A stretch of DNA of 64,000 nt from Eledone cirrhosa (lineage: Eukaryota). Positions 1,923-58,481 of this stretch are shown one piece after another. A program made the translations under genes and the position numbers. How positions within the stretch are numbered: the stretch's first letter is position 1; every line of letters starts with the position of its first letter. The stretch is from the NCBI GenBank assembly GCA_964016885.1, contig OZ024741.1:154442001-154506000 (forward strand), written 5' to 3'. Under the pieces are notes generated by a model that did no database searches, was not told the DNA's origin, and saw only the letters and a program-made list of their open reading frames with translations.

Positions 1923-2570
1923 CTAGCAGTGGTACCCGGCGTTGCACGGGATAAGGTATTTTGGAACGCGAGTCGCCAACAGACCTAATCGTGGAAAAAC
2001 TGCATGCCTGGACAATATGTAAAGAAAATAAACAATACTCTGATGGCTGGATAATCTTTAAGGTTTTCCTCGATTAAGCAGGAAAAATGCAGGTTTTCAC
2101 CTAATGCGGGCCCTAGGGGATCAAGGAAATGAATTTTTTTTTATGTGCATAATATGCCTTGAAATTTTGGGAAAATCGGCTAGACGTAACGCCTCAAAAA
2201 AGCGCTAAAAAGCTGAACAAAATGAAGTTTTTCACCTAATGCGGGTCCTAGGCCATAAAAAAGTTGGATTTTCTTTGCTCACGGTATGAAGAAGAGACTG
2301 ACTAATACATAGTTACAATTTCAAGGAAATCGGTCTGACGTAACGCCTAAAAAAACCCCTAAAAAGCTGAAACAAAAAACGCAGTTTTTCACCTAATGCG
2401 AGCCCTAGGGGATCAAAAAGTTGTATTTTTTATGTGCATAACACTCCCTGAAAAGAAGTAATACACATGTAAAGTTTGAAAAAGATCGGTTGGGTACTTC
2501 TCGAGTTTTAGGGATTCGAACTCACAGAAACACACACACAGACAGACATCCTCTGTTTTATAAATATAGA
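1923..2570 (-). mobile_element. Non-autonomous Helitron, short copy without cargo (648 bp)
   Basis: On the minus strand: 5' A|TC at 2570, GC-rich hairpin CCCGTGCAACGCCGGG 9 nt before a terminal CTAG|T at 1923, inserted between A and T with no TSD; three internal ~140-155 bp subrepeats (ttttcacctaatgcg...). Confidence 0.85.
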
Positions 2571-3979: not shown

Positions 3980-5665
3980 ATGCCTGTACATAATAAGACA
4001 AACAGCATTTGGAAGATTTTCTCTCTTTCGAGCATAAAAACTTTTTATTTGCTTGCATTAATCTCGGTTGTTTCCATAAGCATAGCGTTAACTTTCGGTT
4101 TCCTGGCAAACGAACACTTATTGAAAAATAGATTAAGAGGAACTTTTGAAATGAACAGTGGTCAGAACTTGAAGGATAAATATTCTGCTGAAATCCAACA
4201 TAAATTACGTTATGGAACTGAAAAGAACGTAATAAAAGGGAAATATGAAAAGGCAGTAAAGCAGACGAAAACATTAAACAACATCACGAAGCATGTGAAT
4301 TTAACTTTTGCAGATGACAATAGATTAGTTAATGTACCTTTAAGAAAACCAAACTATCCTTTGAACAAAACTACTGTGCAAACTGTTTATTGGTTAAAAA
4401 ATAAAAATGTAACAACATACCCACTAAAACAAAACAAAAGCGAAAATTCTTTTGTTCCTCTCCCTAATTTTAGGCAGAATACAACAGAAATACCAAAGAG
4501 ATTTTTCTCAATGTTAAAAAACAATGAAACTGGAGCCCCACTAAAGTCTCCTTCAGATATTGAACAGAATAAAACCGGGAAAATCAATGTAATTTCTTCA
4601 AACTTAAAAAACAATGAAACTGGAGCCCCACTAAAGTCTCCTTCAGATATTGAACAGAATAAAAACGGGAAAATCAATGTAATTTCTTCAAACTTAAAAA
4701 ACAATGAAACTGGAGCCCCACTAAAGTCTCCTTCAGATATTGAACAGAATAAAAACGGGAAAATCAATGTAATTTCTTCAAACTTAAAAAACAATGAAAC
4801 TGGAGCCCCACTAAAGTCTCCTTCAGATATTGAACAGAATAAAACCGGGAAAATCAATGTAATTTCTTCAAACTTAAAAAACAATGAAACTGGAGCCCCA
4901 CTAAAGTCTCCTTCAGATATTGAACAGAATAAAAATGGGAAAATCAATGTAATTTCTTCAAACTTAAAAAACAATGAAACTGGAGCCCCACTAAAGTCTC
5001 CTTCAGATATTGAACAGAATAAAAACGGGAAAATCAATGTAATTTCTTCAAACTTAAAAAACAATGAAACTGGAGCCCCACTAAAGTCTCCTTCAGATAT
5101 TGAACAGAATAAAAACGGGAAAATCAATGTAATTTCTTCAAACTTAAAAAACAATGAAACTGGAGCCCCACTAAAGTCTCCTTCAGATATTGAACAGAAT
5201 AAAAACGGGAAAATCAATGTAATTTCTTCAAACTTAAAAAACAATGAAACTGGAGCCCCACTAAAGTCTCCTTCAGATATTGAACAGAATAAAAACGGGA
5301 AAATCAATGTAATTTCTTCAAACTTAAAAAACAATGAAACTGGAGCCCCACTAAAGTCTCCTTCAGATATTGAACAGAATAAAAACGGGAAAATCAATGT
5401 AATTTCTTCAAACTTAAAAAACAATGAAACTGGAGCCCCACTAAAGTCTCCTTCAGATATTGAACAGAATAAAAACGGGAAAATCAATGTAATTTCTTCA
5501 AACTTAAAAAACAATGAAACTGGAGCCCCACTAAAGTCTCCTTCAGATATTGAACACAATAAAACTGGGAAAGTCTATGAAATTTCTTCAAAGTTAAACA
5601 ATTCAGAAACTGAACTGAATAAAACTGAGAAAATCAATATAAGAAGGATACAGGGAAACCATTAG
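3980..5665 (+). CDS. Orphan membrane-anchored (type II / signal-anchor) Asn/Lys/Ser-rich tandem-repeat protein
   Basis: First in-frame ATG at 3980; hydrophobic segment FYLLALISVVSISIALTFGFLA; about 180 non-repeat codons stay open before the array; many N-x-S/T sequons; TATAAA at ~3614. No family recognised. Confidence 0.6.
   Translation: MPVHNKTNSIWKIFSLSSIKTFYLLALISVVSISIALTFGFLANEHLLKNRLRGTFEMNSGQNLKDKYSAEIQHKLRYGTEKNVIKGKYEKAVKQTKTLNNITKHVNLTFADDNRLVNVPLRKPNYPLNKTTVQTVYWLKNKNVTTYPLKQNKSENSFVPLPNFRQNTTEIPKRFFSMLKNNETGAPLKSPSDIEQNKTGKINVISSNLKNNETGAPLKSPSDIEQNKNGKINVISSNLKNNETGAPLKSPSDIEQNKNGKINVISSNLKNNETGAPLKSPSDIEQNKTGKINVISSNLKNNETGAPLKSPSDIEQNKNGKINVISSNLKNNETGAPLKSPSDIEQNKNGKINVISSNLKNNETGAPLKSPSDIEQNKNGKINVISSNLKNNETGAPLKSPSDIEQNKNGKINVISSNLKNNETGAPLKSPSDIEQNKNGKINVISSNLKNNETGAPLKSPSDIEQNKNGKINVISSNLKNNETGAPLKSPSDIEQNKNGKINVISSNLKNNETGAPLKSPSDIEHNKTGKVYEISSKLNNSETELNKTEKINIRRIQGNH
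4514..5593 (+). repeat. 90-bp coding minisatellite, 12 copies (LKNNETGAPLKSPSDIEQNKNGKINVISSN)
   Basis: Units start at 4514, 4604 ... 5504; near-identical, with the last copy diverged. Confidence 0.97.
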
Positions 5666-8600
5666 CATTTTCTCCAAAGAATAAACAATATACTACAGAG
5701 AATCATAAGGTGATTTCTCCAAAGATTGAACATCATACTACAGAGAAACCATTAGTGTTAACTCCAAAGACTTTACAGAATATAATAACGAAATATCACT
5801 AAGGACATTGAAATACATTAAGGGAAACATAATAGTTTTTATCATCAAATATAAATACTGAGAATTCTCATATTTTCTCACCAGTCTTGAGAGAATAAAT
5901 ATAAGAAATCCCAGATTTCACAATTTGGACAGAATATAAAAATTCTTAGGGTCTTTTTCATTCAGCCCATAACAGGAACCTGTAGATAATAACAGTGTAA
6001 ACATATGTCATTATTTTTTATTGGCAGTATCGGTAGAGGGTCAGACATGCTTCCTAGCATAGTTACGTCCCTTTACGTTCTGAGTTCAAATCCCGCCGAG
6101 GTTAACTTTTCTTTTCATCCTTACGGGGTCGATAAAATAAAGTACTAGTAATGTACTGGGTAATTGCTGGCCTTGTGCCAAAAATAGAAACAATTATTTT
6201 TTTCCTTAATTCTTGAAGAGTAAAGAAATTTGCATCAATTTCTTTTGTGAGTTTTTTTTTTTGTTTATTATGAATATCATTTTCACAATATTACCAATAT
6301 TAGTTGTTTTAGACACAAGAGGGACATAATATGGGTACAAATACATACAACTACACATGCACACACTCACTCATTTGTTTACAAATTCCTGGGACTGTCT
6401 TGACTTAAACAAAAAAGTCATATCACTTTGTAGAATTCAAGCCAGTCACTAACAAAGAACTTAGATAAATCTCATACATATATATGCACATACATGCATA
6501 CATATAGACGTACGCACCCTCACAAACATGATATATTTTCTGTCAGTTTTGACAATGAACATTCAGGTGACAATTGTCCTGTGTATATTATTAGTATTTA
6601 TTTTTAATGACCTCAGAGGATTACAAGCAAAGTTGACCCAGGCATTTGAACTCACAACTGCAAAGTAATGAACCAGATACTGTAAATATGTTAGTTAACT
6701 TTTCAATGAAAGCTTTCCTGCTATACAGAGAAAATATAAAAAAATATTTGTCATTTAATTAAAATAGATAAATAAATAAAGATAATATCTTGATAAAATT
6801 GGAAAAATTAAGATTTCTTTACTGAAATTTATTTCTTGGAGTTTAAAAAACCCCCACAAAAGACTTAACAAAATGGACAACAATAGGCAGTCTTGTCCGT
6901 GGGGTGCAGCTCCAATACCACTGAGCCATAGGACTAGAGCCCATCATCCCCTCCCCATTCTTCTGTGACCCTAGAGCCCTTGCCTTTCCCAACTACAAAA
7001 GACACTTTAAATTTTTACAATAAATCTATTTTTATGTTTTTAAAAAAAAAAAAAGGAGTTAATATAAAATAACTGAATAAGGAAAGGAGAGAGTGTGAGA
7101 CAGGAAGTGATAAAGGGAGATAGAAGAAGAATCAATTCCAGTATTTAACTTTATTTATTGATCTGGAAAGGGTGAAAGTCAAAGTTGACCTTAGTGGCAT
7201 TTGAACCCATAGTGCAGTGAGCTGGAACAAATCCTGAGGCATTTTTAATCCAATGCCTTAATGACTTTGTCAATTTACTACCTTAATTGAATAAGGATGA
7301 GGGGAAAAATATAGAACAATTCATGGGTTATTTCAAAACAGTTTTGTTTTTACTGAGGAAAAACCATTGATTGGTAATTTGAATTCAATGACATGGATTA
7401 TAACTGACAACATGGATTATATATGACCAGATTATAATGTAGATCATGAGTGTCAAACAATGGAAGGAGTCCTGCAAGGTGGAATGGCTGATGTAATTGC
7501 AGGTATCACTGGTTCTCTGCATGTTAATCATAGGATGTAGCTGAGATAAACTACCTAGCCAAAGGTGTGGAGTTTGCTCCCACCCTTTCATTCTTTTTTT
7601 TTGTCACTTTTGCAAATTGTTTTCTTAAGAAACAAATAAAGAGCTTGGATTATAAAACAATTATGGTTATTATGATCAATTATATTGACCAGGTGGTAAT
7701 AAAAGCATTGATTATGATGGCCAAAGAATGGATTGTAAGAAAATTATTGATATCAATCCATAACATCCTGTATCAGGTAAAACCACATTAGCAAAACATT
7801 ATTGAAAAGTACAAAATGCACTATGACTGAATTACATTAAAAATGAAAATATTTACTCTAATATTACACATTTTCACACCATCTGTCCACTAGTAAAGAT
7901 ACTATAAATTTTTCAATTAACAAACCTGATTTTAGATATTTTCTGTTAAATCATTGTAGGATGTTCAGAATTAAGTGCCATCATAATATTAATCAGGTGT
8001 ATATAACAATATCAATTATATAAATGTTGCAAATACATTATATATAATTATAACATTGCTTTTATTTATTTATTTCAAGTTTTGTTCTTTTTTATGGTAA
8101 TAAACTCAAAAATACTCAAGTCATTTTGGTCTGTCCATAAGTCAAGCTGTTCAACTATAATCTTATCTCTCCAATTACATTAGTAGTATTAGCATTTATA
8201 TCATTACTATTCATTATATATAAATTATTTATTAGATTCAATATCCACAGTATAATTGTTTTATCCATTTGTATGTGTAATCCTTTAGTTTCTTCAGCTT
8301 GTCTATTCTTTTATTCAGTAATCCATTTTAATATGTGGCAGCATTTTAGAATTTGATAGTTTTAATAATCTAAATTAAGTCCGCTTCAAATTTTTCAAGC
8401 AAAGGGTTATGTGGTGGATTTCCATGTTTTAAACCCATATATTAAGAGAAAGTAAGATTATAGTTGAACAGCTTGAGTTAGATAAATATACCGAGCCATA
8501 TACAATAAGAACTCCTAGATTTAATTTAACCCTTTAGCATTTAAATTACTCTATATTTACTATTGTATTTTCATAGTAAAGGCTTTATCTCACATAATAT

Positions 8601-18038: not shown

Positions 18039-19881
18039 CTGAATATAAAATAAAATAAATTTTCAAATATGTAATTAAGACTGATTTGAGAAAGCTCGTA
18101 CAAAGGAAATATAATTGTTTCTACTTTTGGCACAAGACCATAAATTATCCCAGTGCATTACTGGTACTTTATTTTATCGACCCTGTAAGGATGAAAGGCA
18201 AAGTTAACCTCGGCGGGATTTGAACACAGATCATAAAGGGAAGTAACTCCATGCTTCAAAGCATGGCGCCCAACCCTCTACCGATACTGCCAATCCACAA
18301 AGGAAATATAATGATGAAACTTGGGTAGAGTAAAATAAGAATGGCAAAACAAAAGCTTTTTGTTGTGGCTTTAAAACACCTACACAAAACAATAGATTTT
18401 ACTCTATATTTCATAATATTTCAAGGGTAGAACCTCTTTTTCAAGTGAAGATCAAGACATTCCAACCTTGAAATATTATGAAATATAATGTAAAAACTAT
18501 TGTTTTGTGTGGGTGTTTTAGAGCCACAAAAAGTACCCAGTCCACACAATAAAGTGGTCGTGTTGGTGTCATGACAAAAAGCTCCCAGTCCACACTGTAA
18601 AGTGGTCATGTTGGTGTCATGATAAAAGCTCCCAGTCCACACTGTAAAGAGGTCGTTTTGGTGCCAGTCCAAACTGTAAATGTAGTTGACATTAGGAAGG
18701 GCATCCAGCCATAGAAACCAAGCCAGAAATAGTTCTGTATGAGCAAGACAAAGTCATCTGACCTGACTTGTCTCACAAGACAATTTGTCTACCCATGCTA
18801 GCGTGGAAAATTGGACATTAGTTCCACAATTATATTTCAGATTCACATTATACTGGCTTTCTAAATACATACCTAAAATCCATTTTATGTGTACATAAAA
18901 TGGATTGATTTCAGTTAGATGTAAAATAAATTATATTTTAAATAAAAAAAAAAATATTAGAAAACAGTAATGGTGCTATGATAACAAGCATCCATTACAC
19001 TCTCTAAAGTTATAGTGAAGGTGTCACAATAAAATGCACCCAGTATTTTTATCTTAGTTCCAGCACTACCATGTTACAGATTGCATTAACTGAATTTTAT
19101 CATAGCACCAGCTATGCCACTTTACAGAGTGTATTGGGTGCATTTAATCATGGAAGTAGCACTACCACTTTGCAAGATGTACTGGGAGCATTTTATCATG
19201 GCACTGCCACTACCACATTACAGAGTGTACTAGGTGCATTTCATTGAGACACAAGCACTATCATTTTACAGAATGTACTGAGTGTATTTTATTGTGGATA
19301 CAACTCAAGAAAAATTGTTATGACAATCCCTTTATTGTATGTATTAAATGAGACAAAGGTATGCCTTCCAGAACACCTGCCTGTTGCTCACATAGTGCTA
19401 TCAAGACAGTTATTCAACACTCTTCTGCTTAACTCTTAACATTCTATAATGATTTAGTAGAAAATGTTTAAATATGGGTTTGTTAACTCAAATGTTTAAA
19501 GTATCTTTACTTAAATATTTTATGTAATTCAGTCATTGTGTTGTTTTATACTTTTCAAGAATGTCTTGCTAATGTGGTTTCATGTGGTTTGTTAATTTAA
19601 ATGTTTATAGTATCTTTACTACTGGACAGAAAATTGCTGTGAAAATTTGTAGTATTATTATAAAGATTTGAATATTTAATGAGATGGAGTCATAGAGCTG
19701 TTTTATACTTTTTAAAAATATCTTGCTAATGTGGTTTCATGCAGCACAGAGTACTAAGTATTAAAATGTTCAACAGTTGTCTATAGAAGGTGGGGAGCTC
19801 ACATAAAACCATTCCTTGGTAGATAGGAGTGAAATAATTTAAAAAAAAAAGAAAAAAAAGCAGTGTTATACATGTACTTAC

Positions 19882-21891: not shown

Positions 21892-22889
21892 ATAAATGAT
21901 TTAAACAGAACTTTGATTCATGTATTTTCTATATAACTGCTCTGTAGAACTACTGATGTTACATTGAGCTATTTATCTTACTGGTAATAAAGTAGTAATA
22001 AATTACTGTCTTTCACTGTTTAGGGTTTAAAATATATATAACTATAAAAGGTTTTAGTATATACATAACCATAAATAGTATCCTTAATACTATATATATC
22101 ATCATCATCATCATCATTTCATTTTACGTCCGCTTTTTCCCTGCTTGCAAGGGTGGGACGGGAACTGATGCTGGCTTGATTTCTACAGCTGGATGCCCTT
22201 CCTAACACCAACCTCATTTACAGTGAGTGCTGGGTGCTTTTTTGCCGTGGCACCTCCACGACCACTTTGCAGTGGTATGATATGGACCCCAGTCCCTATC
22301 ACCTCATTTCTACAGCTGAGTAAACTGGAGCAATGTGAAATAAAGTGTCTTGCTCAAGGAAACAACACATCACCCAGTCTGAGAATTGAACTCACAACCT
22401 TTCGATTGCAAGGCCAATGCTCTAACCACTAAGCCACGTGCCTCCATATATATCATCAGTTACAAAAGTGGCATATGCAGATACTTAAGAATTGCTGGGT
22501 TTTTATTTTAACCCATTTGTCTGTCATATTGTGATGGAATACTTCTGGGGAGATTCTTGATAGTATAGAAGAGTTCTAAGGGCAGGGCATCTTAAAAAAT
22601 CTCAATTAGTTAAATATATATATTATGTTTAAACTTTATACATGTAAGGGAGATAATTCTAACAAATAATTGTTTCTACTTTAGGCACAAGGCCAACAAT
22701 TATCCAGTGCATTACTGGTACTTTATTTTATCGACCCCGTAAGGATGAAAGGCAAAGTTAACCTCGGCGGGATTTGAACTCAGATCGTAAAGGGACGTAA
22801 CTATGCTGGAAAGCATGGCGTCCGACCCTCCACCGATACTGCCAATCCACCGCCTGGATCTAACAAATAATAAGGAGTAACTTGTGTGC

Positions 22890-27323: not shown

Positions 27324-29123
27324 TGTATGTATGTATGTATGTATGTATGTATGTATGTATGTATGTATGTATGTGCGTGTGTCTGATGGTAGCTAAAATG
27401 CTTCCATAGGCGGTATGCCGGTTGAGCACTCTATGCTCTTACAGAGCAGAATATGATAGAATAGAAAACGAAAAATCAGTGATGCATCTGAACTTAATTT
27501 ATTGTGTTACAATTGTTTCCCTGGTGGGAAAATGTTTAACCCTGACGGCAGAGCTCAAGCCGTTTCGACGGCTATTTCTGGACTACTAATCCAGAAATAG
27601 CCGTCGAAAGGCTTGAGGTCTGCCGTCGGGGTTAAACATTTTCCTATTACCCACTCTACTACCCTAAGTATTGAGTACTCTGGTGCGTTATGCTCCATCT
27701 GGTTCCTTACCACACTTCCTTCGTTATATATATATATAGGGCGGTTATATATATATATATATATCAAGGGCGGTGCCCCAGCATGGCCTCAGCCGGATGG
27801 CTGAAACAGGTAAAAGAGTAAAAGAGTATATATATATAGAGAGAGAGAGGTCATTCTTTTATTTAAAATAGAAAGATAAATGTATCAAATGAAGGAACCT
27901 TCACATGATCCACTTAATCAGCTAGATAAAGCAATAAAAAAGAAGGAACTGAGTATCAGATGTTACCATGTTTACATTGGCCTTTTTATTGCTAAATCAT
28001 ACTATGTTAGTGCTACTGTTAATTGTTTCTACTTTTTGGCACAAGGCCAGCAATTATTCCAGTGCATTACTGGTATTTTATTTTATCGACTCTGTAAGGA
28101 CGAAAGGCAAAGTTAACCTCGGCGGAGGTTCATACTGTAGACAAATAAGCATCTCCATAAATGTATTATTTGCAAAATTCTATGTATAATAAGCTTTAAC
28201 TTTCTTGCCGGAGTAATGAGTGAGTAAATATCACTAATGATGGCTTTAGGATATTTTAATACCATAGAATTTGGCATTGTCACATAGTTACTGAGATAGT
28301 TGTGACATAATTGTTTCTACTTTTGGCACAAGGCCAACAATTACCCAGTACATTACTGGTACTTTATTTTATCGACCCCGTAAGGATGAAAGGCAAAGTT
28401 AACCTCGGCGGGATTGTGACATAATAACAGCTTAAAATACTTATAGCAAGACTTATGTATGTTTATTATACATAAAAATATTGTATATGCTTCTGTATAC
28501 GCCTCTATTTTGAATCATGCTGTGTTAGTGCTGCTGCTAATTACTGATAGTGTATATTTTATTTACCACCTGTCTAGTAGATAAAAGATCTTGGCACCTC
28601 ATAGTATACCAAGACCTAAAACAATCAACAGAAAGTCAATGGAAACAGGTGGTGGATTAAGTGGGAGCTTTTCATTATAGTCTTGCTGTCGGAAGGTGAC
28701 AGATCAAAAATAAACTTGAAAGCGACAGAACATCACACGTACATACATACGTACCCCCTCCCCCCACCCCCATATATATACTCTTTTACATGTTCCAGCG
28801 ATCCAGTTGAGGCCATGCTGGGGTACCGCCCCTATATTTATGTTTTGCTTCTGACAGGACCCACTTGAAAGAGTGTTTGAGGACTCTGGCCTCACGACCC
28901 TCTCAGGTATAAGTGGACGAAGAAGATATATATATATACATATATATACAATGATATTAAATAAATGGAAACTATATTTATAAAACCATAATTTATAGTT
29001 TTATAAATATAGTTTCCATTTATTTAATATCATTGAATACTTACTCCAGAAACTGTCGAGTGCTTTGAATCAGTTGTAAACATCTATATTTGTTGGATTT
29101 CCAACAAATTAAATATCTCTTCT

Positions 29124-30644: not shown

Positions 30645-31725
30645 ATTTGTAGGTAAAGTTTAAAGTTCGACAGTGAAGTCAGCTTGTATATATGTATGTA
30701 TGAGGAAGATGAAAGTTCAATGACTTCCCGAGTGGTGTGTGAGGAGTGTCCCGTAGGCGTATCGGTGTTTATATATATATGTGTGTGTGTATACATATAT
30801 ATTATATGTATGTATATGTGTGTATATATGTATGTGTGTGTATGTATATATATACAAATAATATATATCAGTGACCGGCAAGTGTTTGTTATCAGTCGAA
30901 GCTATCGTTAGGATAATCCCGTATAAATACCTGTGTGAATTAATATAGACAGTGATTGTGTACGACTCTACAACTCTATTAATACTTTCATTATGGAATG
31001 CACATTAGTTTCATTATTTTGTTACTTAACACACCCGCTTCGTTCACATGTCTTCCACCTTGAAAACAGTTTGCTCGACTATTCTATTATGATAACTCTA
31101 AACCGTTAACATCTTTTCTTCGCTAAACCATATGAATTGTTGTTTTAATTCTTCTCTGTCACTGTCCAACATTGTTAAATGATAATGAGAGAATATTGCA
31201 AATGTATTAATTAACTATGGCAACACATCTCTCTTCTCGTGGGGGAAAAGAGAAAGCAACGTGAACGAAGGAAATTTACTAAGGAACATGTAATTGTTAA
31301 TCACCGTCCAGCAGTCTAACCAAGGAAACGTGTTGTTTCAATAATAAAAAAGGAAGAAAAAAATCATTTTGGCTTTTATCTCATCACAGAGAAAGGCTAT
31401 TTATTGATTTGTTTCGATTGTAAACCATATATTCATTATATTAATGCATCGGGTCGTATACATTTATAATAAATTTCTTATATATATAATATATATTTGC
31501 ACAATCATTGTCATTTTAGATTTTATATATAAATAATATAACACATTCATAAATAATATATATATATATTGAGAGAGAGCGCGCGCGAGAGATCAACTCG
31601 CGGCATCGTCATTTGATCATTCTGTTTTGTCACTCTTCTGAGAATAACGGTTTATTGGTTTATACAGAATTACCGGTACTTTAATAAACGAACAGGTTTC
31701 ACTTGACACCGCGTATTACATTAAA
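30645..31725. promoter_or_regulatory. Probable bidirectional promoter/5'UTR region shared by RFK and GLRX3
   Basis: Divergent ATGs ~1.08 kb apart; locally CpG-enriched, e.g. gagcgcgcgcgagag and ctcgcgg near 31578-31603; no recognisable transposon in the interval. Confidence 0.6.
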
Positions 31726-32697
31726 ATGGCGGAAGTCGAAGAAGTTCCTAGTGTTGATCGAGTAAACGCGGTTCTTACCGAGGCCAGATCGAACCTCGTT
31801 GTCTTACATTTTTCTGCTAAATGGTCAGAAGAATGTCAACAGATGAACGACGTATTACGAGAACTCGCCAAGGATCCTCATTATGTGAATGTAAGGTTTC
31901 TTGTTGTGGAAGCCGAGGACTTAGTCGATTTGACAAACAAGTATAAAGTAGCTTCCGTTCCTGTATTTATCTTCTTCAAAAACAAGACACAGATCGATAT
32001 TCTGGAAGGTGCTAATGCCGTGGAACTTAGCAAGAAAGTGAAGAACCTGGTAGAAGCTACAGTGGCAGTAGCAAACCAAGAAGATATTAATGTGAAGCTA
32101 AAAGCTCTCGTTAATCAAGCACCTGTTATGCTCTTCATGAAAGGTAGTCCCGATGAACCGAGATGTGGGTTCAGTCGCACCATTATCGGCATCCTAAACA
32201 AACACAACATCGAGTTTTCGCATTTTAACATCCTCAGCGATGAAACCGTGCGCCAAGGACTGAAAAAATACTCGGATTGGCCGACATATCCTCAGTTGTA
32301 CAACAAAGGAGAACTTATCGGTGGACTAGACATCGTCAAAGAACTCTCAGAATCTAACGAACTCGAAAAGATGCTACCCCAGAATGAAGACATAAATGCA
32401 AAATTGAAAAACCTTATCAACAAAGCTAAAGTCATGCTGTTTATGAAGGGTTCCCCAGACACGCCGCGCTGTGGTTTCAGTAAAACCACTATCGCTATCA
32501 TGGAAGAAGCTGGTGTTCCTTATGAAACGTTTGATATTCTTCAAAACGAAAGCGTGAGACAAGGGCTGAAGACGTATTCCGACTGGCCCACATATCCACA
32601 GTTGTACGTCAGTGGCGAACTGGTAGGTGGACTTGACATTATTAAAGAACTTAAAGAAAACAATCAGTTAGTTGAGACCTTAAAAGGGTCTTCATAG
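31726..32697 (+). CDS. GLRX3: Glutaredoxin-3 / PICOT (thioredoxin-like domain plus two monothiol CGFS glutaredoxin domains), single-exon CDS
   Basis: 323-aa ORF; N-terminal Trx-like domain (WSEEC); two PRCGFS...YSDWPTYPQLY...GGLDI domains; AAAATGG start context; AATAAA at ~32804 followed by a T-rich tract. Confidence 0.97.
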   Translation: MAEVEEVPSVDRVNAVLTEARSNLVVLHFSAKWSEECQQMNDVLRELAKDPHYVNVRFLVVEAEDLVDLTNKYKVASVPVFIFFKNKTQIDILEGANAVELSKKVKNLVEATVAVANQEDINVKLKALVNQAPVMLFMKGSPDEPRCGFSRTIIGILNKHNIEFSHFNILSDETVRQGLKKYSDWPTYPQLYNKGELIGGLDIVKELSESNELEKMLPQNEDINAKLKNLINKAKVMLFMKGSPDTPRCGFSKTTIAIMEEAGVPYETFDILQNESVRQGLKTYSDWPTYPQLYVSGELVGGLDIIKELKENNQLVETLKGSS

Positions 32698-33734
32698 ATC
32701 CCTATATTAAAGTGTCCTCTCTTTAAGAGCCCATGATAATGATCTCCTTTATCGGTATTAATCAAGAAAAAAGACTTTTTCTCTCTCTTTATCTGTTAAT
32801 TGTAATAAAGACGATAGCACGTTTTTGTTTTTTTTTTGTTCCCTTTACTTTATATATATATATATATATATAGTAATAATAAAAAGGATATGGTGTTAGA
32901 TCTTCATTACATTTATTGAGGTGTCACACTTCAATAAATGTAATGAAGATCTAACACCTCGCCCTCATTATTAAGTATAACACTATGTTAAGTATAACAC
33001 CAATATACCTACTGGAAACTACGCATCAAGTGCTCACTTTTTTAAACCTAGAATGTCACGTTACAACCACTAAACTGTTGTTATATATATATAATTGTTT
33101 ATAATATATATAATGTTAAGTATTTCCAAAGAAAAAGCAATATATATATATATATATAGGTATAATAGAACGCCTGAATCGATTTCAGTGGGGAAAACAT
33201 TTTTTTCCTCTATTTACTTTTTCGTGTACTATCAACTAATTTAGCCTCCAAGATGTTGACAATCAACTTTTTCCCCGGAGAACGGAGTTTTCCCAACGAA
33301 TTTATTTTTGCGTGTTATTAACAAATAGGACTACCAAACCAGTCGGAACCGACGTGATTTATAGTAAAAGGGGGCGGAAAGAATATCGGAGTTTCACAGA
33401 TCAACACACCTCTCGCGTTTGTTGGGAAATAATTATCCTCCCTCGATTTTTTCTGGACCTCTCAGGTGCTTGCAATAGACTTTCTTTTCTGGATTAAGGT
33501 TAGGGTTTTTACAACCCCTTTCTAAAACACTCCTTAAACATCCCAACTCCACTCCCATCAATTATCTTGCTGTTACCATTCACCATTTTCTGTATATATA
33601 TATATATAATAAAGAAAGTGTGGTAAGAAACCAGGTGGACCATAACGCACAAGAGTACTCGATACTTAGAGTAGTAAAGTCGGATCTAGCTGTCGAAACG
33701 GCCGGAGCTCAGCCGTCGGGGTCCTGACTCTTTT

Positions 33735-37355: not shown

Positions 37356-38571
37356 CCGTATATACTCGCGTATAGGTCGCATACCCACTTTTCATTTAAC
37401 AAATAGGCTATTTGCCATTGACTCGCAGATAAGTCGCACTGAAATTTGGGCCGTCAAACTACTCCAAACCATGTTTTATTTATAAAATAAACATTAACGT
37501 CATCGAAATTTCGTCAATTTGAGATGACTGCGAGATAAAGCCTTTAAGCGCGAAAATTAACTCTTAATATAGTGAAACAACTTGAAATAACACGTGTTTT
37601 TTAACGTTGAAAGTATAACAGATTTTTAGCGTATCAACATGGCTTCCCAAAGTAGCGAATACTGATTTTGAAGGTTTTACATGCGACGACATTCAAAATC
37701 AAAAAGAAACACAAGATAATTGTCTCTACTTTAGGCACAAGGCCAGCAATTATCCAGTGCATTACTGGTACTTTATTTTATCGACCCCGTAAGGATGAAA
37801 GGCAAAGTCAACCTCGGTGGGATTTGAACTCAGATCGTAAAGGGACGTAACTATGCTGGAAAGCATGGCGTCCGACCCTCTACTGATAGTGATTTATCTT
37901 CAAATGAATCAGTCGTATTTATTTCTGACGATGATAGTTACTTTGAAAGTGAAAGCGAAGATCTGACGGACACCATTGAAAATATTACAGCAGCATGGTT
38001 GAAAGATACAACACCAATACATGTTCACACCTATTTCCAAATTCTTCTGCATAACCAACCACCTTTAACTTGAAAACTGTTTGATAACTTTTTCTCTTAC
38101 TGGAATTCATATTTCTCAGTGAATTATAAAATAAATTTCAACTATCAACTTTTCTCACTTGCTAATTTTGAAAAGAAACGCCACATACAATAATCTGTTT
38201 CCTGTTAAAGTAAATACGTCACAATACGTGTTCATAGCAACGCTAAGACAATAAAATCACATTTTAAATACCGGGTATGCATTTCTATCGATTTTAATGA
38301 CGGACGGTTTGGTCAGATAGAAAAAAACGTAAACACTACCAAGTTTTAGTAAAAACTTTAAAATCAAGAAATATATGTATAAGAAGGTAGATATATGAAA
38401 TTATTATGTTAAATAATAAAAAAATATTAAAGTTATTTTTATAAATACCCATCGTTGATTAAGTCTATGAAAAATCATTGGTCAGTCTGATGTTGATTGG
38501 ATAGGTCGCACCCCAAAAATTTATACTTATTTATCATTAAAAAAGTGCAACCTATACGCGAGTATATACGG
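37356..38571. mobile_element. Non-autonomous Tc1/mariner-superfamily (Tc2/pogo-like) DNA transposon with a nested SINE
   Basis: TIRs ccgtatatactcgcgtatagg / cctatacgcgagtatatacgg flanked by TA at 37354-55 and 38572-73; subterminal gtcgcac repeats. Confidence 0.85.
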
Positions 38572-38765: not shown

Positions 38766-39565
38766 CTAGCAGTGGTACCCGGCGTTGCACGGGATAAGGT
38801 ATTGTAAAATATATAACTGCCTTAGCTAAGCTTAGTATTGCCACGACCACGGCTGACAAAGAAGTAAGGGTCTGGTGGTACGTAAGTAAGCAACACTGGC
38901 TTAAAACGTGAGGAAGAAGGGCGATATCCAATTTTAGCGGCCTAAATGCCGCTTACTTGCTGTAGTTGCTGCTTACTTCAATGTATGAGGCTATTCCAAC
39001 AAATTTACATTCCCCCTTTTTTAGCCGTTAAAAGAAATATAGATTTATTTTTTTTTTTTTTTTTTGCGATTTATTTGCCAATGGAGCATAGATTTCTTTA
39101 TTTGCCCCTTTTTTGTTTGTTTGTTTTTTTGCGATTTATTAGCCTTTTGGGGTCACACACACCCTCGTAGAAAGTGTGCGACCTTTCTGCCAGGGAGCAC
39201 AGAGAGAGGGGGGGGGTGCTCCCTTCTTCTCTTACCTGTACAAGCCGATATAGAGAGATGGCCCACTTACACGGGCCATTATTGCTACTTTCACCAATCT
39301 TTCATGGAATTGGCTGGGACTGAGTGCCCTTTTCTCCACCTTGATCCTTCTTTCGAAGTGGTATCGGAAGAAGAGGACCATTTGTTGGCCGGCGACATAT
39401 CCCTACAGTTTCCTCGTTGCAAACGCATCTGGGACATTTCTTTTCCAAGGGGTTTCCGTCCCGGAATCCGTGTCTGTAGAGCCTTTCCTGAACGGGCAGG
39501 GCCCCTCGGTATAATAGTAAGTATTAGTGGTTGTAATAAAAATGCAATCAAAATGTAATAAATAC

Positions 39566-39701
39566 CTTCACTGATTTCTTTCCTTATATTATCAACAGAA
39601 GTTGGTATGTCACCCAAAGTTCGCTTTGTATGTTCCCGAATAGCAGTGAATTTTGATAAAACTGTTTCTAATTCCTTCTCCACAGTAAGACAAATATCCA
39701 T
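39566..39701 (-). pseudogene. RMND5: Captured RMND5-like exon, left arm (inverted copy)
   Basis: Exact reverse complement of 39875-40010. Confidence 0.8.
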
Positions 39702-39874
39702 GTGTAGTCCAAAAAGATATAAATCTTTAAAAAAATTATAATAATTCTTTATTATTATTTTCTTTTTCTGTAAATAATTATTTTTCTATATATCTCAAAC
39801 CCTGCCAAACACCACATCTGTCCATCTGTAAATTTAAATGACTGTTCTTTCATACTTATCCTCTTCAACTACAC

Positions 39875-40010
39875 ATGGATATTTGTCTTACTGTGGAGAA
39901 GGAATTAGAAACAGTTTTATCAAAATTCACTGCTATTCGGGAACATACAAAGCGAACTTTGGGTGACATACCAACTTCTGTTGATAATATAAGGAAAGAA
40001 ATCAGTGAAG
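39875..40010 (+). pseudogene. RMND5: Captured first coding exon of an RMND5 (GID2, CTLH E3 ligase)-like gene, right arm
   Basis: MDICLTVEKELETVLSKF...IRKEISE resembles the RMND5A/B N-terminus (MDQCVTVERELEKVLHKF, recalled); ends G|gtattt followed by AT-rich intron-like DNA; no further exons seen. Confidence 0.8.
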
Positions 40011-40064
40011 GTATTTATTACATTTTGATTGCATTTTTATTACAACCACTAATACTTACTATTA

Positions 40065-40450
40065 TACCGAGGGGCCATGCCCGTTTGGGAAAGGCTCTAC
40101 AGACACGGATTCCGGGACGGAAACCCCTTGGAAAAGAAATGTCCCAGATGCGTTTGCAATGAGGAAACTGTGGGGATATGTTGCCGGCCAACAAATGGTC
40201 CTCTTCTTCCGATACCACTTCGAAAGAAGGATCAAGGTGGAGAAAAAGGCACTCAGTCCCAGCCAATTCCATGAAAGATTGGTGAAAGTAGCAATAATGG
40301 CCCATGTAAGTGGGCCATCTCTCTATATCGGCTTGTACAGGTAAGAGAAGGGAGCACCCCCCTCTCTCTGTGCTCCCTGGCAGAAAGGTCGCACACTTTC
40401 TACGGGGGTGTGTGTGACCCCAAAAGGCTAATAAATCGCAAAAAAAAACA
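40065..40450 (+). mobile_element. 3' fragment of a Tx1/L1-type LINE (Zn-knuckle C-terminus, 3'UTR, AATAAA + poly(A)); mirrored at 39124-39511
   Basis: Two-arm consensus reads YRGALPVRERLYRHG...CPRC...EETV, then ...FFRYHFERRIKVEKKALSPSQFHER...; followed by ctaataaatcgc(a)n. Confidence 0.65.
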
Positions 40451-40991
40451 AAACAAACAAAAAAAGGGGCAAATAAAGAAATCTATGCCCCAGTGGCAAA
40501 TAAATCGCAAAAAAAAAAACCATAAATAAATCTATATTTCTTTTAACGGCTAAAAAAAGGGGAATGTAAATTTGTTGGAATAGCCTCATACATTGAAGTA
40601 AGCAGCAACTACAGCAAGTAAGCGGCATTTAGGTCGCTAAAATTGGATATCGCCGGAAGAAGTTGTGTGCACTTACTAACTGTTTGGGGAATGAGTGTGA
40701 GATTTGTCTTGAGCAAGGGTGGCAGAATAACCAGAGGCAGCAGACAGCCAGACATACAGACATATTATAAGGGCGCGTTTTGGACGCAGAGAGAATTGTA
40801 GGAAGTGACGTAATGCAGACAGCCAGACATATCGCCTAATGCGGTCCCTAGGGAATTGAAAATTAGAAATTTTTTTTGCTCAGAACACTCCCTGAAACAA
40901 GTATTACATGTGTAAAATTTGAAAACAGGCGGTTGGGTGCTTCTCTAGTTTTAGGGATTCAAACTCACGCACACACAGACAGATATCCTTA

Positions 40992-41026
<35 letters not shown>

Positions 41027-41260: not shown

Positions 41261-41447
41261 AGGGCGGTGAATTGGCAGTATCGGTAGAGAGTCGGACATA
41301 CTTTCCAGCATAGTTACGTCCCTTTACGATCTGAGTTCAAATCCCGCCAAGGTTAACTTTGCATTTCATCCTTACGGGGTCGATAAAATAAAGTACCAGT
41401 AATGTACTGGGTTATTGCTGGTCTTGTGCCAAAAGTAGAAACAATTA
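41261..41447 (+). mobile_element. tRNA-related SINE family A (full copy with TSD); other copies at ~6020-6197(+), 18112-18297(-), 22668-22856(-), 28020-28126(-), 28308-28414(-), 34830-34925(+), 37718-37885(-), 41571-41757(-), 62185-62335(+)
   Basis: A-box-like TGGCAGTATCGG and B-box GAGTTCAAATC; shared core gcctttcatccttacggggtcgataaaat; TSDs attattagtaaaagg (41249/41444) and acaaaggaaatataat (18100/18297). Confidence 0.9.
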
Positions 41448-42399
41448 TTAGTAAAAGGCTAAATAAATGTTTGTTCATATTTCATGTTGTGGATGACTGG
41501 GTGGGTCACTTGAGAGAGATACGTTATATATACACACACACAGACAGTTAACTAGAGCACAATAATAAAATAATTGTTTCTACTTTTGGTACAAGGCCAG
41601 CAATTACCCAGTACATTACTGGTACTTTATTTTATCGACCACGTAAGGATGAAAGGCAAAGTTAACCTCGGCGGGATTTGAACTCAGAATGGCAAGGGCC
41701 GTAACTCTATGCGTCAAAGCATCGCGTCCGATCCTCTACCAATACTGCCAATCCACCATGATTTACGGTCAACGTTCAAATACTTGTCCCAGGACGCAAA
41801 ATAAACAAAATAGAATTGTATAAATAATATATAGATATACAGTATATATGTATATATATTGAACTAATTAACTATCTATACCTGACTTCTGTTTTTTTAT
41901 TTTTTATTGTTCTATTCACAAACATATATACATATATACATATATATATACATATACTTGCAAGCAAGGAAAAGTGGACGTAAAATGATGATGATGATGA
42001 TATATATACATACGTATATATATATATATAAGTAAGTATATTTTGAAATTAGAATTAGAAGCTTTTGTCATATTTTTTGACTAAAGAAATTTTAGCCTGC
42101 TAATTATATATATATATGTATGTATCTGGTGCTGAAAGTGTTAATGAAAAGAAATGACAATACAATTTTGTGTTCAGAGGTTTAGCAATGTTAAGATAAC
42201 AAAAATGAAGGAAAAAGTGGTTGTCATAAACTAATCAGTATTTATGCATTCCCTTTTTACTAGAAACACTAAAATGTTTTTAAACCTCTTCTTTACCACA
42301 GATATGGTAACACAGTAACTCTGCTTAGAAGGTTATGCTGAAGGACTTCTCACAGCTTACATTGAAATAGTTCTATTGTATACATATATCTTTTTCACC

Positions 42400-47310: not shown

Positions 47311-47559
47311 ATGTGTTGACTGACTGTGTAATCACAACTTTTGAGAACTGATTCCATCCTCCAACAAACACCACCAACACTACCACCACAACCATCATTA
47401 TTTCCATTACCACTGACACCACAATCATCATCTCTACCGCCTTTACCTACAATACCACTACCATCACCACTACCATCACAACCACCACCACTACCACCAC
47501 TACCATCACCACTACCATCACAACCACCACCACTACCACCACCACCATCACCATCATAA

Positions 47560-50500
47560 CCACTGACACCACAATCATCATCTCTACTGCCTTTACCTAC
47601 AATACCACTACCATCACCACTACCATCACAACCACCACCACTACCATCACCACCATCACCATCATAACCACTGGCACCGCAATCATCATCTCTACCACTT
47701 ATCCCTACAATACCACCACCATCATAACCACTACCACCACCACCACCACCATCACTATAACCATTACCATCATAACCACAGGCACCACAATCCTCATCTC
47801 TACCACTATACCTACAATACCACCACCACTACCACCATCACAACCACAGGCACCACAATCCTCATCTCTACCACTATACCTACAATACCACCACCACCAC
47901 TACCAGCATCACAACCACTGGCACCACAATCATCATCTCTACCACTGTACCTACAATACCACTACCACCATCACAACCACTGGCACCACAATCATCATCT
48001 CTACCACTATACCTACAATACCACCACCACCACCACCACTACCAGCATCACAACCACTGGCACCACAATCCTCATCTCTACCACTATACCTACAATACCA
48101 CCACCACCACCACTACCAGCATCACAACCACTGGCACCACAATCCTCATCTCTACCACTATACCTACAATACCACCACCACCACCACTACCAGCATCACA
48201 ACCACTGGCACCACAATCCTCATCTCTACCACTATACCTACAATACCACCACCACCACCACTACCACCATCACAACCACTGGCACCACAATCATCATCTC
48301 TACCACTATACCTACAATACCACCACCACCACCACTACCACCGTCACAACCACTGGCACCACAATCATCATCTCTACCACTATACCTACAATACCACCAC
48401 CACCACCACTACCACCGTCACAACCACTGGCACCACAATCATCATCTCTACCACTATACCTACAATACCACCACCACCACCACTACCACCGTCACAACCA
48501 CTGGCACCACAATCATCATCTCTACCACTATACCTACAATACCACCACCACCACCACTACCACCATCACAACCACTGGCACCACAATCATCATCTCTACC
48601 ACTATACCTACAATACCACCACCACCACCACCATCACAACCACTGGCACCACAATCATCATCTCTACCACTATACCTACAATACCACCACCACCACCACT
48701 ACCACCATCACAACCACTGGCACCACGATCATCATCTCTACCACTATACCTACAATACCACCACCACCACCACTACCACCGTCACAACCACTGGCACCAC
48801 AATCATCATCTCTACCACTATACCTACAATACCACCACCACCACCACTACCACCGTCACAACCACTGGCACCACGATCATCATCTCTACCACTATACCTA
48901 CAATACCACCACCACCACCACTACCACCGTCACAACCACTGGCACCACGATCATCATCTCTACCACTATACGTACAATACCACCACCACCACCACTACCA
49001 CCGTCACAACCACTGGCACCACAATCATCATCTCTACCACTATACCTACAATACCACCACCACCACCACCACTACCACCGTCACAACCACTGGCACCACA
49101 ATCATCATCTCTACCACTGTACCTACAATACCACCACCACCACCACTACCACCATCACAACCACTGGCACCACAATCATCATCTCTACCACTATACCTAC
49201 AATACCACCACCACCACTACCAGCATCACAACCACTGGCACCACAATCATCATCTCTACCACTGTACCTACAATACCACTACCACCATCACAACCACTGG
49301 CACCACAATCATCATCTCTACCACTATACCTACAATACCACCACCACCACTACCAGCATCACAACCACTGGCACCACAATCATCATCTCTACCACTGTAC
49401 CTACAATACCACTACCACCATCACAACCACTGGCACCACAATCATCATCTCTACCACTATACCTACAATACCACCACCACCACCACCACTACCAGCATCA
49501 CAACCACTGGCACCACAATCCTCATCTCTACCACTATACCTACAATACCACCACCACCACCACTACCAGCATCACAACCACTGGCACCACAATCCTCATC
49601 TCTACCACTATACCTACAATACCACCACCACCACCACTACCAGCATCACAACCACTGGCACCACAATCCTCATCTCTACCACTATACCTACAATACCACC
49701 ACCACCACCACTACCACCATCACAACCACTGGCACCACAATCATCATCTCTACCACTATACCTACAATACCACCACCACCACCACTACCACCGTCACAAC
49801 CACTGGCACCACAATCATCATCTCTACCACTATACCTACAATACCACCACCACCACCACTACCACCGTCACAACCACTGGCACCACAATCATCATCTCTA
49901 CCACTATACCTACAATACCACCACCACCACCACTACCACCGTCACAACCACTGGCACCACAATCATCATCTCTACCACTATACCTACAATACCACCACCA
50001 CCACCACTACCACCATCACAACCACTGGCACCACAATCATCATCTCTACCACTATACCTACAATACCACCACCACCACCACCATCACAACCACTGGCACC
50101 ACAATCATCATCTCTACCACTATACCTACAATACCACCACCACCACCACTACCACCATCACAACCACTGGCACCACGATCATCATCTCTACCACTATACC
50201 TACAATACCACCACCACCACCACTACCACCGTCACAACCACTGGCACCACAATCATCATCTCTACCACTATACCTACAATACCACCACCACCACCACTAC
50301 CACCGTCACAACCACTGGCACCACGATCATCATCTCTACCACTATACCTACAATACCACCACCACCACCACTACCACCGTCACAACCACTGGCACCACGA
50401 TCATCATCTCTACCACTATACCTACAATACCACCACCACCACCACTACCACCGTCACAACCACTGGCACCACAATCATCATCTCTACCACTATACCTACA

Positions 50501-53500
50501 ATACCACCACCACCACCACCACTACCACCGTCACAACCACTGGCACCACAATCATCATCTCTACCACTGTACCTACAATACCACCACCACCACCACTACC
50601 ACCATCACAACCACTGGCACCACAATCATCATCTCTACCACTATACCTACAATACCACCACCACCACCACTACCACCATCACAACCACTGGCACCACAAT
50701 CATCATCTCTACCACTATACCTACAATACCACCACCACCACCACTACCACCATCACAACCACTGGCACCACAATCATCATCTCTACCACTATACCTACAA
50801 TACCACCACCACCACCACCACTACCACCGTCACAACCACTGGCACCACAATCATCATCTCTACCACTGTACCTACAATACCACCACCACCACCACTACCA
50901 CCATCACAACCACTGGCACCACAATCATCATCTCTACCACTATACCTACAATACCACCACCACCACCACTACCACCATCACAACCACTGGCACCACAATC
51001 ATCATCTCTACCACTATACCTACAATACCACCACCACCACCACTACCACCATCACAACCACTGGCACCACGATCATCATCTCTACCACTATACCTACAAT
51101 ACCACCACCACCACCACTACCACCGTCACAACCACTGGCACCACAATCATCATCTCTACCACTATACCTACAATACCACCACCACCACCACTACCACCGT
51201 CACAACCACTGGCACCACAATCATCATCTCTACCACTATACCTACAATACCACCACCACCACCACTACCACCGTCACAACCACTGGCACCACAATCATCA
51301 TCTCTACCACTATACCTACAATACCACCACCACCACCACTACCACCATCACAACCACTGGCACCACAATCATCATCTCTACCACTATACCTACAATAACA
51401 CCACCACCTCCACTACCACCGTCACAACCACTGGCACCACAATCATCATCTCTACCACTATACCTACAATACCACCACCACCACCACTACCACCATCACA
51501 ACCACTGGCACCACGATCATCATCTCTACCACTATACCTACAATACCACCACCACCACCACTACCACCATCACAACCACTGGCACCACAATCATCATCTC
51601 TACCACTGTACCTACAATACCACCACCACCACCACTACCACCATCACAACCACTGGCACCACGATCATCATCTCTACCACTATACCTACAATACCACCAC
51701 CACCACCACTACCACCATCACAACCACTGGCACCACAATCATCATCTCTACCACTGTACCTACAATACCACCACCACCACCACTACCACCATCACAACCA
51801 CTGGCACCACAATCATCATCTCTACCACTATACCTACAATACCACCACCACCTCCACTACCACCGTCACAACCACTGGCACCACAATCATCATCTCTACC
51901 ACTATACCTACAATACCACCACCACCACCACCACTACCACCGTCACAACCACTGGCACCACAATCATCATCTCTACCACTATACCTACAATACCACCACC
52001 ACCTCCACTACCACCGTCACAACCACTGGCACCACAATCATCATCTCTACCACTATACCTACAATACCACCACCACCACCACCACTACCACCGTCACAAC
52101 CACTGGCACCACAATCATCATCTCTACCACTATACCTACAATACCACCACCACCACCACCACTACCACCGTCACAACCACTGGCACCACAATCATCATCT
52201 CTACCACTATACCTACAATACCACCACCACCACCACCATCACAACCACTGGCACCACAATCATCATCTCTACCACTGTACCTACAATACCACCACCACCA
52301 CCACTACCACCGTCACAACCACTGGCACCACAATCATCATCTCTACCACTATACCTACAATACCACCACCACCTCCACTACCACCGTCACAACCACTGGC
52401 ACCACAATCATCATCTCTACCACTATACCTACAATACCACCACCACCACCACCATCACAACCACTGGCACCACAATCATCATCTCTACCACTATACCTAC
52501 AATACCACCACCACCACCACTACCACCATCACAACCACTGGCACCACAATCATCATCTCTACCACTATACCTACAATACCACCACCACCACCACTACCAC
52601 CATCACAACCACTGGCACCACAATCATCATCTCTACCACTATACCTACAATACCACCACCACTACCACCATCACAACCACTGGCACCACAATCATCATCT
52701 CTACCACTATACCTACAATACCACCACCACCACCACCACTACCAGCATCACAACCACTGGCACCACAATCATCATCTCTACCACTATACCTACAATACCA
52801 CCACCACCACCACTACCACCATCACAACCACTGGCACCACAATCATCATCTCTACCACTATACCTACAATACCACCACCACTACCACCACTACCACCATC
52901 ACAACCACTGGCACCACAATCATCATCTCTACCACTGTACCTACAATACCACCACCACCACCACTACCACCATCACAACCACTGGCACCACAATCATCAT
53001 CTCTACCACTGTACCTACAATACCACCACCACTACCACCACTACCACCATCACAACCACTGGCACCACAATCATCATCTCTACCACTGTACCTACAATAC
53101 CACCACCACTACCACCACTACCACCATCACAACCACTGGCACCACAATCATCATCTCTACCACTGTACCTACAATACCACCACCACCACCACTACCACCA
53201 TCACAACCACTGGCACCACAATCATCATCTCTACCACTGTACCTACAATACCACCACCACCACCACCACTACCACCGTCACAACCACTGGCACCACAATC
53301 ATCATCTCTACCACTATACCTACAATACCACCACCACCACCACTACCACCATCACAACCACTGGCACCACAATCATCATCTCTACCACTATACCTACAAT
53401 ACCACCACCACCACCACTACCACCATCACAACCACTGGCACCACAATCATCATCTCTACCACTATACCTACAATACCACCACCACCACCACTACCACCAT

Positions 53501-54530
53501 CACAACCACTGGCACCACAATCATCATCTCTACCACTATACCTACAATACCACCACCACCACCACTACCACCATCACAACCACTGGCACCACAATCATCA
53601 TCTCTACCACTATACCTACAATACCACCACCACCACCACTACCACCGTCACAACCACTGGCACCACAATCATCATCTCTACCACTATACCTACAATACCA
53701 CCACCACCACCACTACCACCATCACAACCACTGGCACCACAATCATCATCTCTACCACTATACCTACAATACCACCACCACCACCACCACTACCACCATC
53801 ACAACCACTGGCACCACGATCATCATCTCTACCACTATACCTACAATACCACCACCACCACCACCACTACCACCGTCACAACCACTGGCACCACAATCAT
53901 CATCTCTACCACTATACCTACAATACCACCACCACCACCACCACTACCACCATCACAACCACAGGCACCACAATCATCATCTCTACCACTATACCTACAA
54001 TACCACCACCACCACCACTACCACCATCACAACCACTGGCACCACAATCATCATCTCTACCACTATACCTACAATACCACCACCACCACCACTACCACCG
54101 TCACAACCACTGGCACCACGATCATCATCTCTACCACTATACCTACAATACCACCACCACCACCACCACTACCACCGTCACAACCACTGGCACCACAATC
54201 ATCATCTCTACCACTATACCTACAATACCACCACCACCACCACTACCACCGTCACAACCACTGGCACCACAATCATCATCTCTACCACTATACCTACAAT
54301 ACCACCACCACCACCACTACCACCGTCACAACCACTGGCACCACAATCATCATCTCTACCACTATACCTACAATACCACCACCACTACCACCATCACAAC
54401 CACTGGCACCACAATCATCATCTCTACCACTATACCTACAATACCACCACCACCACCGTCACAACCACTGGCACCACAATCATCATCTCTACCACTATAC
54501 CTACAATACCACCACCACCACCACCTCTGC
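47560..54530 (+). repeat. ~7 kb C/A-rich minisatellite, modal unit 74 bp (~90 copies)
   Basis: Unit accactggcaccacaatcatcatctctaccactatacctacaata(cca)n ctaccaccatcaca; spacing 48059/48133/48207 = 74; variants differ by multiples of 3. Confidence 0.97.
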
Positions 54531-55009
54531 CACTACCACAGTTACCTTCACCATCACAACCTCTGCTACTACCACAGTTACCTTCACCATCACTGACACC
54601 ACCACTATTCCACCACTACCTCTGAAACCACTCCACTACTAACACCAACACTGTCACCTCTGCCCCAACTGCTGCCACCTCCACTGACCCCCATATGCAA
54701 CAACCACTACTACCACCTACACCATCACCTACGCCATCACCAACACCTACACCACCACCTACACCATCACCAACACCTACACCACCAGCTACACCATCAG
54801 GAACCACCTACACCATCACCGCCACCTACACCACCACCACCTACACCACCACCACCTACACCATCACCATCATCACCACCACCACCTACACCACCACCAC
54901 CACCTACACCATCACCACCACCACCACCACCACCTACACCACCACCTACACCACCACCACCACCACCACCAGTACTACAACAACAACTACTGATAATATT
55001 GAACAATAT

Positions 55010-58146: not shown

Positions 58147-58179
58147 TATGGAATTTGGTTGATAGAAACTGTGCAGAAA

Positions 58180-58219
<40 letters not shown>

Positions 58220-58481
58220 AGTTTCTGCACAGTTTCCATCAACCAAATTCCATTCACAAGGCATTTTTCAATCATATATTATTATTTGTTTGACCTGAAT
58301 AGCTTGCTCGCTTTTTGGCTTTGCGGTTAATGGTTTAACCATCGTTTCAGTGTGAATGACCTTTTTAATGTATATTTATTGCTCTAGTTCATTTGTATCT
58401 ATCGAGCGCTTGCCACACAATTTGGAAGTTTTTTTTCGCTAATTTCCACTAGCCGAAATGCGATTCTCGCTAATTTATATT

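Follow-up and report, generated by a model that had tools for sequence, protein, structure and literature searches.

The palindrome at positions 38920-40654 of the window (the whole 64-kb stretch of DNA analyzed here) is very probably a nonautonomous Merlin fold-back element that landed in an unrelated short repeat, has a copy of RMND5's first coding exon in each arm, and most likely multiplies selfishly with transposase from other copies. The first-pass annotation of this DNA had recognized two inverted arms of ~790 bp around a 159-bp spacer, each arm with an ATG-initiated 136-nt exon and its GT donor, and both observations are borne out (Table 1). Local alignment of the arms (38920-39719 versus 39857-40654) yields 774 identical columns out of 804, the inner 11 of these 804 being chance extension; indels between the window arms fall in homopolymer runs, and the two exon copies are identical. 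What that account lacked were the palindrome's own GG ends and its 8-bp duplication GGAAGAAG. The central 981 nt fold far beyond chance (predicted energy, -788 kcal/mol; z = -58 versus 20 shuffles), in agreement with the expectation of a long hairpin in any read-through transcript.

Table 1. Coordinates of the fold-back element, its cargo and its surroundings in the window
Feature	Position	Strand	Remarks
Related short Helitron-like repeat	1923-2570	+	Only the ends in common; without the cargo of the palindrome
Helitron-like repeat (insertion host), short, nonautonomous, 5' part	38766-38919	+	Last 8 bases are the target site
Left TSD GGAAGAAG, 8 bp	38912-38919	+	
Merlin fold-back element, nonautonomous	38920-40654	.	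1,735 bp; GG termini
Left arm	38920-39708	-	Mirrors the Merlin right end, including cargo
RMND5 first coding exon, left copy, GT donor	39566-39701	-	Exact reverse complement of 39875-40010
Central-junction microhomology AGT, 3 bases	39706-39708	+	Mirrored arm meets sequence just 3' of the Merlin transposase stop codon
Spacer, 159 bp	39709-39867	+	~12 bp of Merlin sequence 3' of the transposase, then RMND5 sequence 5' of the ATG
RMND5 capture, from upstream sequence through exon 1 into the start of intron 1	39721-40058	+	Equivalent to G000:C5:79536166-79536519 (354 columns, 89% with gaps)
Right arm	39868-40654	+	
RMND5 first coding exon, right copy	39875-40010	+	130/136 identical to parent
Internally deleted LINE 3' end (endonuclease-RT-zf-RVT), A-rich tail repeats	40062-40520	+	
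Right TSD GGAAGAAG, 8 bp	40655-40662	+	
Helitron-like host repeat, 3' part	40663-41005	+	

Judged by its ends, its duplication and its transposase-bearing partners, the mobile unit is a Merlin derivative. Merlin is defined by GG ends and 8-9 bp duplications (PMC8101967), and the window element has 5'-GG terminal inverted repeats (TIRs). Its end sequence also bounds elements with a Merlin transposase that scores on PF12762 (DDE_Tnp_IS1595; E values of 6e-8 and 6e-12) and retains three acidic motif blocks. All partner transposase copies read are frameshifted or stopped, and among the 85 listed matches the transposase of this family is nowhere intact (286 aa in the longest open frame); the mobilizing copy is therefore unseen. 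The genome contains at least 150 PF12762 matches, several of which adjoin exon copies. Paired ends were recognized in 58 elements from 72 loci, scoring the best end pair per locus, with three pairs belonging to neighboring short derivatives. The 8-bp duplication is perfect in 41 of these elements (seven of the 41 represent one insertion event multiplied by hAT), has one mismatch in 9 and is worse in 8. Hence, 50 of the 58 lie within one mismatch at 8 bp and none extends to 9 bp, while the eight elements without a clear duplication count against the explanation that we favor.

The family has dispersed widely, as the first-pass annotation expected of a mobile unit. Its window-type central junction has 37 exact matches on 8 contigs, with differing flanks and duplications (two pairs of matches each lie at one locus), and the 19-nt end pattern has 292. 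An exon 20-mer returns 111 matches including the parent gene, the 99 listed nonparent rows falling into 65 loci, and the central 371 bp gives 40 scored full-length matches at 97-100% identity from 116 candidates. A host fragment with an identified parent thus lies within TIRs at many sites with different duplications, as in multicopy Pack-TIRs. One window-type copy sits inside the arm of another (L072:2541-6004). At window positions 38936-38951 and in the ends of L049, L055 and L066, six bases flanked by a pair of short inverted repeats within the Merlin end are flipped in some copies, i.e., a micro-inversion.

Two other accounts of the palindrome bear on its standing as an element. That it is an assembly fold-back is hardly conceivable, even though long palindromes are difficult to sequence and none of the listed contigs of runs X1, X2 and X4 crosses the central junction (the stretch compared had only 19 letters left of the junction); the recurrence of that junction across the genome, the ~3% difference between the window arms, indels included, and a center made of unique spacer rather than a mirror point all argue against an artifact. 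Somewhat less remote, yet still very improbable, is the proposal of the first-pass annotation that a Helitron captured the exon and carries the palindrome as cargo. The palindrome does sit between Helitron-like ends, and movement of the host repeat could in principle carry it along. The likeness of these termini to the short element at 1923-2570 was confirmed, for the ends only (44 bp at 98%, 195 bp at 79%). However, the palindrome has TIRs and an 8-bp duplication of its own, and the host repeat, joined across this duplication, has 769 genome matches, with 99 of the 100 listed sites empty and the single filled one being the window. Empty full host copies measure 559-587 bp (four of the eight fetched; the remaining four are truncated or rearranged). 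Among 67 exon-bearing loci tested, a set to which L060, L115 and L118 do not belong as they fall below the exon threshold, the window alone has its element ends directly bordered by host sequence. Two others show a host-repeat match 0.8 and 3.5 kb away, and the 11 best other copies align to 38920-40654 alone, none to the host flanks. The empty host sites and the 66 exon loci lacking host flanks therefore identify the window as a single nested insertion. Counting Helitron copies with this cargo, as had been suggested, yields just the window's among the 100 listed sites; dispersed cargo between Helitron ends and devoid of its own duplication, which would mark Helitron gene capture, was not found among these loci and listed sites.

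We take the name of the host repeat from the first-pass annotation and from a general resemblance to Helitrons. It has conserved ends within AT-rich flanks and no evident target duplication. Helitron and Helentron criteria include a link to a Rep-helicase partner, defined terminal structures and an unmodified target (PMC4067079). The window contains further features around this repeat. An ~180-bp SINE-like repeat occurs in many copies (6020-6200, 18108-18298, 22662-22850, 37713-37891 and 41266-41757), two of which form an inverted pair just to the right of the Helitron-like host, and short self-palindromes of 67-176 bp lie at 18360-18532, 27527-27644, 28945-29039, 32892-32958 and 58148-58253. 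On the plus strand, an intronless open frame at 31648-32697 with thioredoxin and two glutaredoxin domains (GLRX3-like) may be a retrocopy or the main gene. Another plus-strand open frame of 565 aa (3968-5665), without a Pfam match, combines a hydrophobic N-terminal stretch with a 30-aa repeat present ~12 times (4475-5612, a tandem array of 90-bp units). A 7.6-kb tandem array of ~74-bp units (47370-54990) has long stretches open in all three plus-strand frames.

Piggybacking of the exon palindrome on another transposon, which had been proposed for the Helitron, does happen, in a hAT element. The fold-back concerned is a 1.3-kb sister form that differs in its end sequence, lacks the LINE piece and has lost 45 bp from the exon of each arm. 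Its copies share flanks: they are nested in a 4.47-kb element that has TIRs and 8-bp duplications of its own and is 97-98% identical among six copies (L153-L158). One of them encodes an open 883-aa hAT transposase (L154:1662-4310, plus strand; G000:C2:364154300-364164299), and the fold-back is placed between the hAT end and the transposase start, directly upstream of the start codon. The hAT site was filled with the fold-back in all 12 matches. An apparent target preference of the sister fold-back for CAAATTAC was rejected, the copies being one insertion into hAT.

The resemblance of the encoded peptide to the N terminus of RMND5/GID2 could be traced to its source, i.e., RMND5 exon 1, with the parent gene on contig C5, where it was located via its CTLH domain. 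The parent first coding exon (C5:79536336-79536471) matches proteins named RMND5A, with a mollusc as the best named hit, and differs from the element exon at six positions, all nonsynonymous. The best PDB match of the 46-aa peptide is human RMND5A (residues 1-43; E value of 0.032); a large protein search returned no relatives, and no Pfam family was significant. Since contigs of run X4 join the parent exon to downstream exons at GT-AG joints, the RMND5 gene model on C5 is confirmed. A close homologous protein used as outgroup keeps the parent's residue at five of the six changed sites, so the six changes most likely arose on the element. This pattern fits decay there; purifying selection on the peptide is not seen, with six nonsynonymous and no synonymous changes being too few for a test. 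Fifteen element rows share the same departures from the parent wherever the site is present, which favors a single capture. Neither element ends nor the LINE piece occur within 100 kb around RMND5, and capture in place has therefore left no trace there.

The second cargo is a LINE 3' end, which is retained in older copies with ~90% identity to a family of 2,587 candidates and reaches the LINE 3' terminus. A long copy of this family encodes endonuclease, RT and zf-RVT (the latter below the cutoff, E value of 5e-5), and its protein is closer to human L1 ORF2p (E value of 4e-48) than to R2. The LINE piece reported in the arms is thus present; the Tx1 clade attached to it is the first-pass annotation's label. 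Against seven sampled LINE loci, the window piece shows 72-83% identity and 0-7 perfect 21-mers out of 434, and it would therefore be a poor guide against the sampled LINEs. A closer LINE target was sought and rejected: all 12 sampled single matches are short Merlin derivatives, not LINEs.

Relatives of the window element form a graded series. L057 (2,894 bp) has short TIRs, a transposase, a single exon and the longest cargo, whereas L049 carries the exon in each of its 523-bp arms and has a single transposase. The right end is mirrored further, into the transposase, in L115, L127, L058 and L068, and L060:2546-6373 (G000:C11:53551045-53554872) is a 3,828-bp whole-element palindrome with a transposase in both arms and a perfect duplication. 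In the window form, the mirrored arm, nine bases before the ATG, is fused at the shared AGT to the sequence behind the transposase stop. Short derivatives of 450-1,200 bp are abundant. Long palindromes holding two transposase matches in inverted orientation occur as well in a second Merlin family with different ends (L059:2752-6036 and L062:2972-5808); therefore, the mirroring habit is not tied to the cargo. Long mirrored ends are found in L061, L137 and L138, too. At L056, a truncated Merlin copy is enclosed by 2.2-kb inverted arms (678-2916 and 6317-8561; 99%) that come from a presumably Penelope-like retroelement, which has RT and, C-terminally, an endonuclease-like region.

From this series we infer the following order of events. 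In a single event, a Merlin would have acquired ~390 bp from RMND5, placed after the stop codon of its transposase, a step that we infer because a cargo-free ancestor with the same ends was not found. In one lineage, a 5'-truncated LINE would then have been added behind the exon. Fold-back or template-switch repair may next have copied the cargo-bearing right end onto the opposite end, in the extreme producing palindromes of the whole element. Loss of the transposase by deletion at the 3-base microhomology would have given the window form, which presumably transposed to ~35 sites. The junction fits both a whole palindrome followed by deletion and direct arm extension by repair. Continued copying between the arms would keep them alike. 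Finally, one copy probably entered the Helitron-like repeat of the window, and the sister fold-back a hAT element that would have carried it from then on.

Arm-to-arm copying leaves a countable signal. Fifteen window-type copies out of the 37 junction copies were compared over 618 columns, with L111 skipped and two homopolymer-rich blocks left out. Where a variant has two carriers, these are both arms of one copy at 17 of 30 sites, against an expected 3.4% (~1 site). Of the private substitutions, 17 are common to the two arms of a copy and 85 are seen in a single arm, which indicates that copying is partial. Arm distance is 1.3% within copies versus 1.8% between copies, and each arm lies ~0.9% from the majority sequence; the latter value suggests that the family is young. 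Similarly, six private substitutions of L060, including a stop codon, are common to both transposase copies, and none is confined to a single arm (columns from 953 onward are slice ends and remain uncounted). Transfer between arms after the window form arose would be the simplest reading, since all copies share one junction. Unsampled sublineages or assembly polishing could supply part of the shared-variant signal.

Evidence at the RNA level comes from run X4, whose GT-AG-spliced RMND5 contigs imply that it behaves as RNA. In the spacer and in the exon, X4 contigs also carry element alleles, the 129 nt of exon compared showing no difference. They attest to the presence of element-type exon sequence only, as contigs give neither strand, source copy nor hairpin, and their depths were taken as a measure neither of copy number nor of expression. 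A search with window positions 39700-40654 listed no match among four runs (one study, kind unrecorded) and is uninformative on expression. The private alleles of the window copy are missing from the X4 contigs and from DNA-like contigs as well, and their absence is thus uninformative on transcription of this particular copy. A-to-G editing of the arms, which had been anticipated, was not supported: X4 differs from the window in an edit-like manner at 40220 and 40244, but the same haplotype exists in the genome, in a 705-bp derivative at C4:184543607, and editing at these sites was rejected; rare variants are dropped from contigs, which may thus miss editing. Divergence from the parent, in turn, does not preclude silencing, a concern voiced earlier. 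Perfect matches to the parent account for 20 of the 116 21-mers of the exon, and 89 lie within one mismatch; silencing would therefore be possible in principle.

These data bear on an alternative in which the fold-backs are functional hairpin-RNA genes whose siRNAs reduce RMND5 mRNA and shut down the transposase of the family itself, in the manner of maize Mu killer. In its favor, the predicted hairpin is very stable; the two exon copies do not differ from one another and share 96% identity with the parent; copying between arms preserves the stem; the RNA-like run X4 contains element-allele contigs over exon and spacer; and L060 holds the transposase in both arms. Nevertheless, stray DNA or a few intronic copies transcribed by read-through would explain the X4 contigs equally well, the six exon changes arose or were kept regardless of the protein, parts of the exon are deleted in some copies (45 bp in the hAT-borne form), the two edit-like sites have a genomic source, and transposition alone accounts for the copy number. 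We therefore regard hairpin-RNA function as unlikely, and the preferred explanation is that of a selfish element with decaying cargo, for each ingredient of which precedent exists; if hairpin RNA arises at all, read-through would yield it as a by-product. It is a bold and doubtful extension that this Merlin family turns captures behind its transposase into self-repairing hairpins that, spread by its own superfamily and by hAT to >100 exon copies, would give rise to small RNAs against RMND5 and the transposase. If true, this would be an animal counterpart of Mu killer, also tuning a host ubiquitin-ligase gene. We found no cephalopod small-RNA study in the literature that bears on this family.

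The window family shares GG termini, 8-bp duplications and a DDE_Tnp_IS1595 transposase with the Merlin superfamily, whose TIRs span 24-462 bp in the text of a survey that also tabulates 1000 bp for the zebrafish Repbase entries Merlin-1_DR and Merlin-N5_DR (PMC8101967). It differs in having long arms built from a captured host exon and a LINE, and in copies that mirror the whole transposase; the Merlin text passages and table of that survey do not name captured host genes (PMC8101967). Turmoil-1 of Caenorhabditis elegans is likewise a DNA transposon, with captured coding fragments in 760-bp inverted repeats on both sides, but it belongs to the Harbinger superfamily, is known from one complete copy and eight fragments as opposed to at least 65 loci here, and is described there without a derivation series or an arm-copying test (PMC2572040). 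Multicopy animal Pack-TIRs, including Ssk-FB4, are also TIR transposons with a piece of host gene amplified by repeated transposition, for which template switching has been proposed; in contrast, the cases described (Ssk-FB4 and four multicopy ones from frog and alligator) have few copies, and Ssk-FB4 makes a protein, whereas the exon described here is decaying and mirrored (PMC8277862). Neither "Merlin" nor "octopus" occurs in the main text of that paper (PMC8277862). The long TIRs of Galileo in Drosophila were extended by recruited internal sequence, with arm recombination and conversion proposed, yet Galileo falls within the P-element superfamily and recruits its own sequence (PMC3573991). 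Mu killer, like L060, is an inverted duplication of a transposase gene that would give a long hairpin on read-through; silencing was shown genetically there, whereas L060 is known from sequence alone (PMC3440606). The repeat annotation of Octopus vulgaris includes Merlin, with no occurrence of "captur" or "palindrom" in the text covered (PMC13282606). In the open literature, with Repbase, Dfam and subscription journals outside its scope, we found no description of this exon-bearing Merlin family.

Multicopy gene capture by cut-and-paste transposons has rarely been reported in animals, and the gain and upkeep of fold-back arms have so far been mostly proposed and seldom measured. Here, one genome preserves a whole series, from single cargo through partial mirrors and the whole palindrome to deleted forms, and the family offers both a countable signal of arm-to-arm copying and a case of cargo passing to another superfamily. 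Two questions thereby become testable: how fast inverted arms convert each other, and whether hairpins of this kind supply RNA silencing or editing in the lineage.
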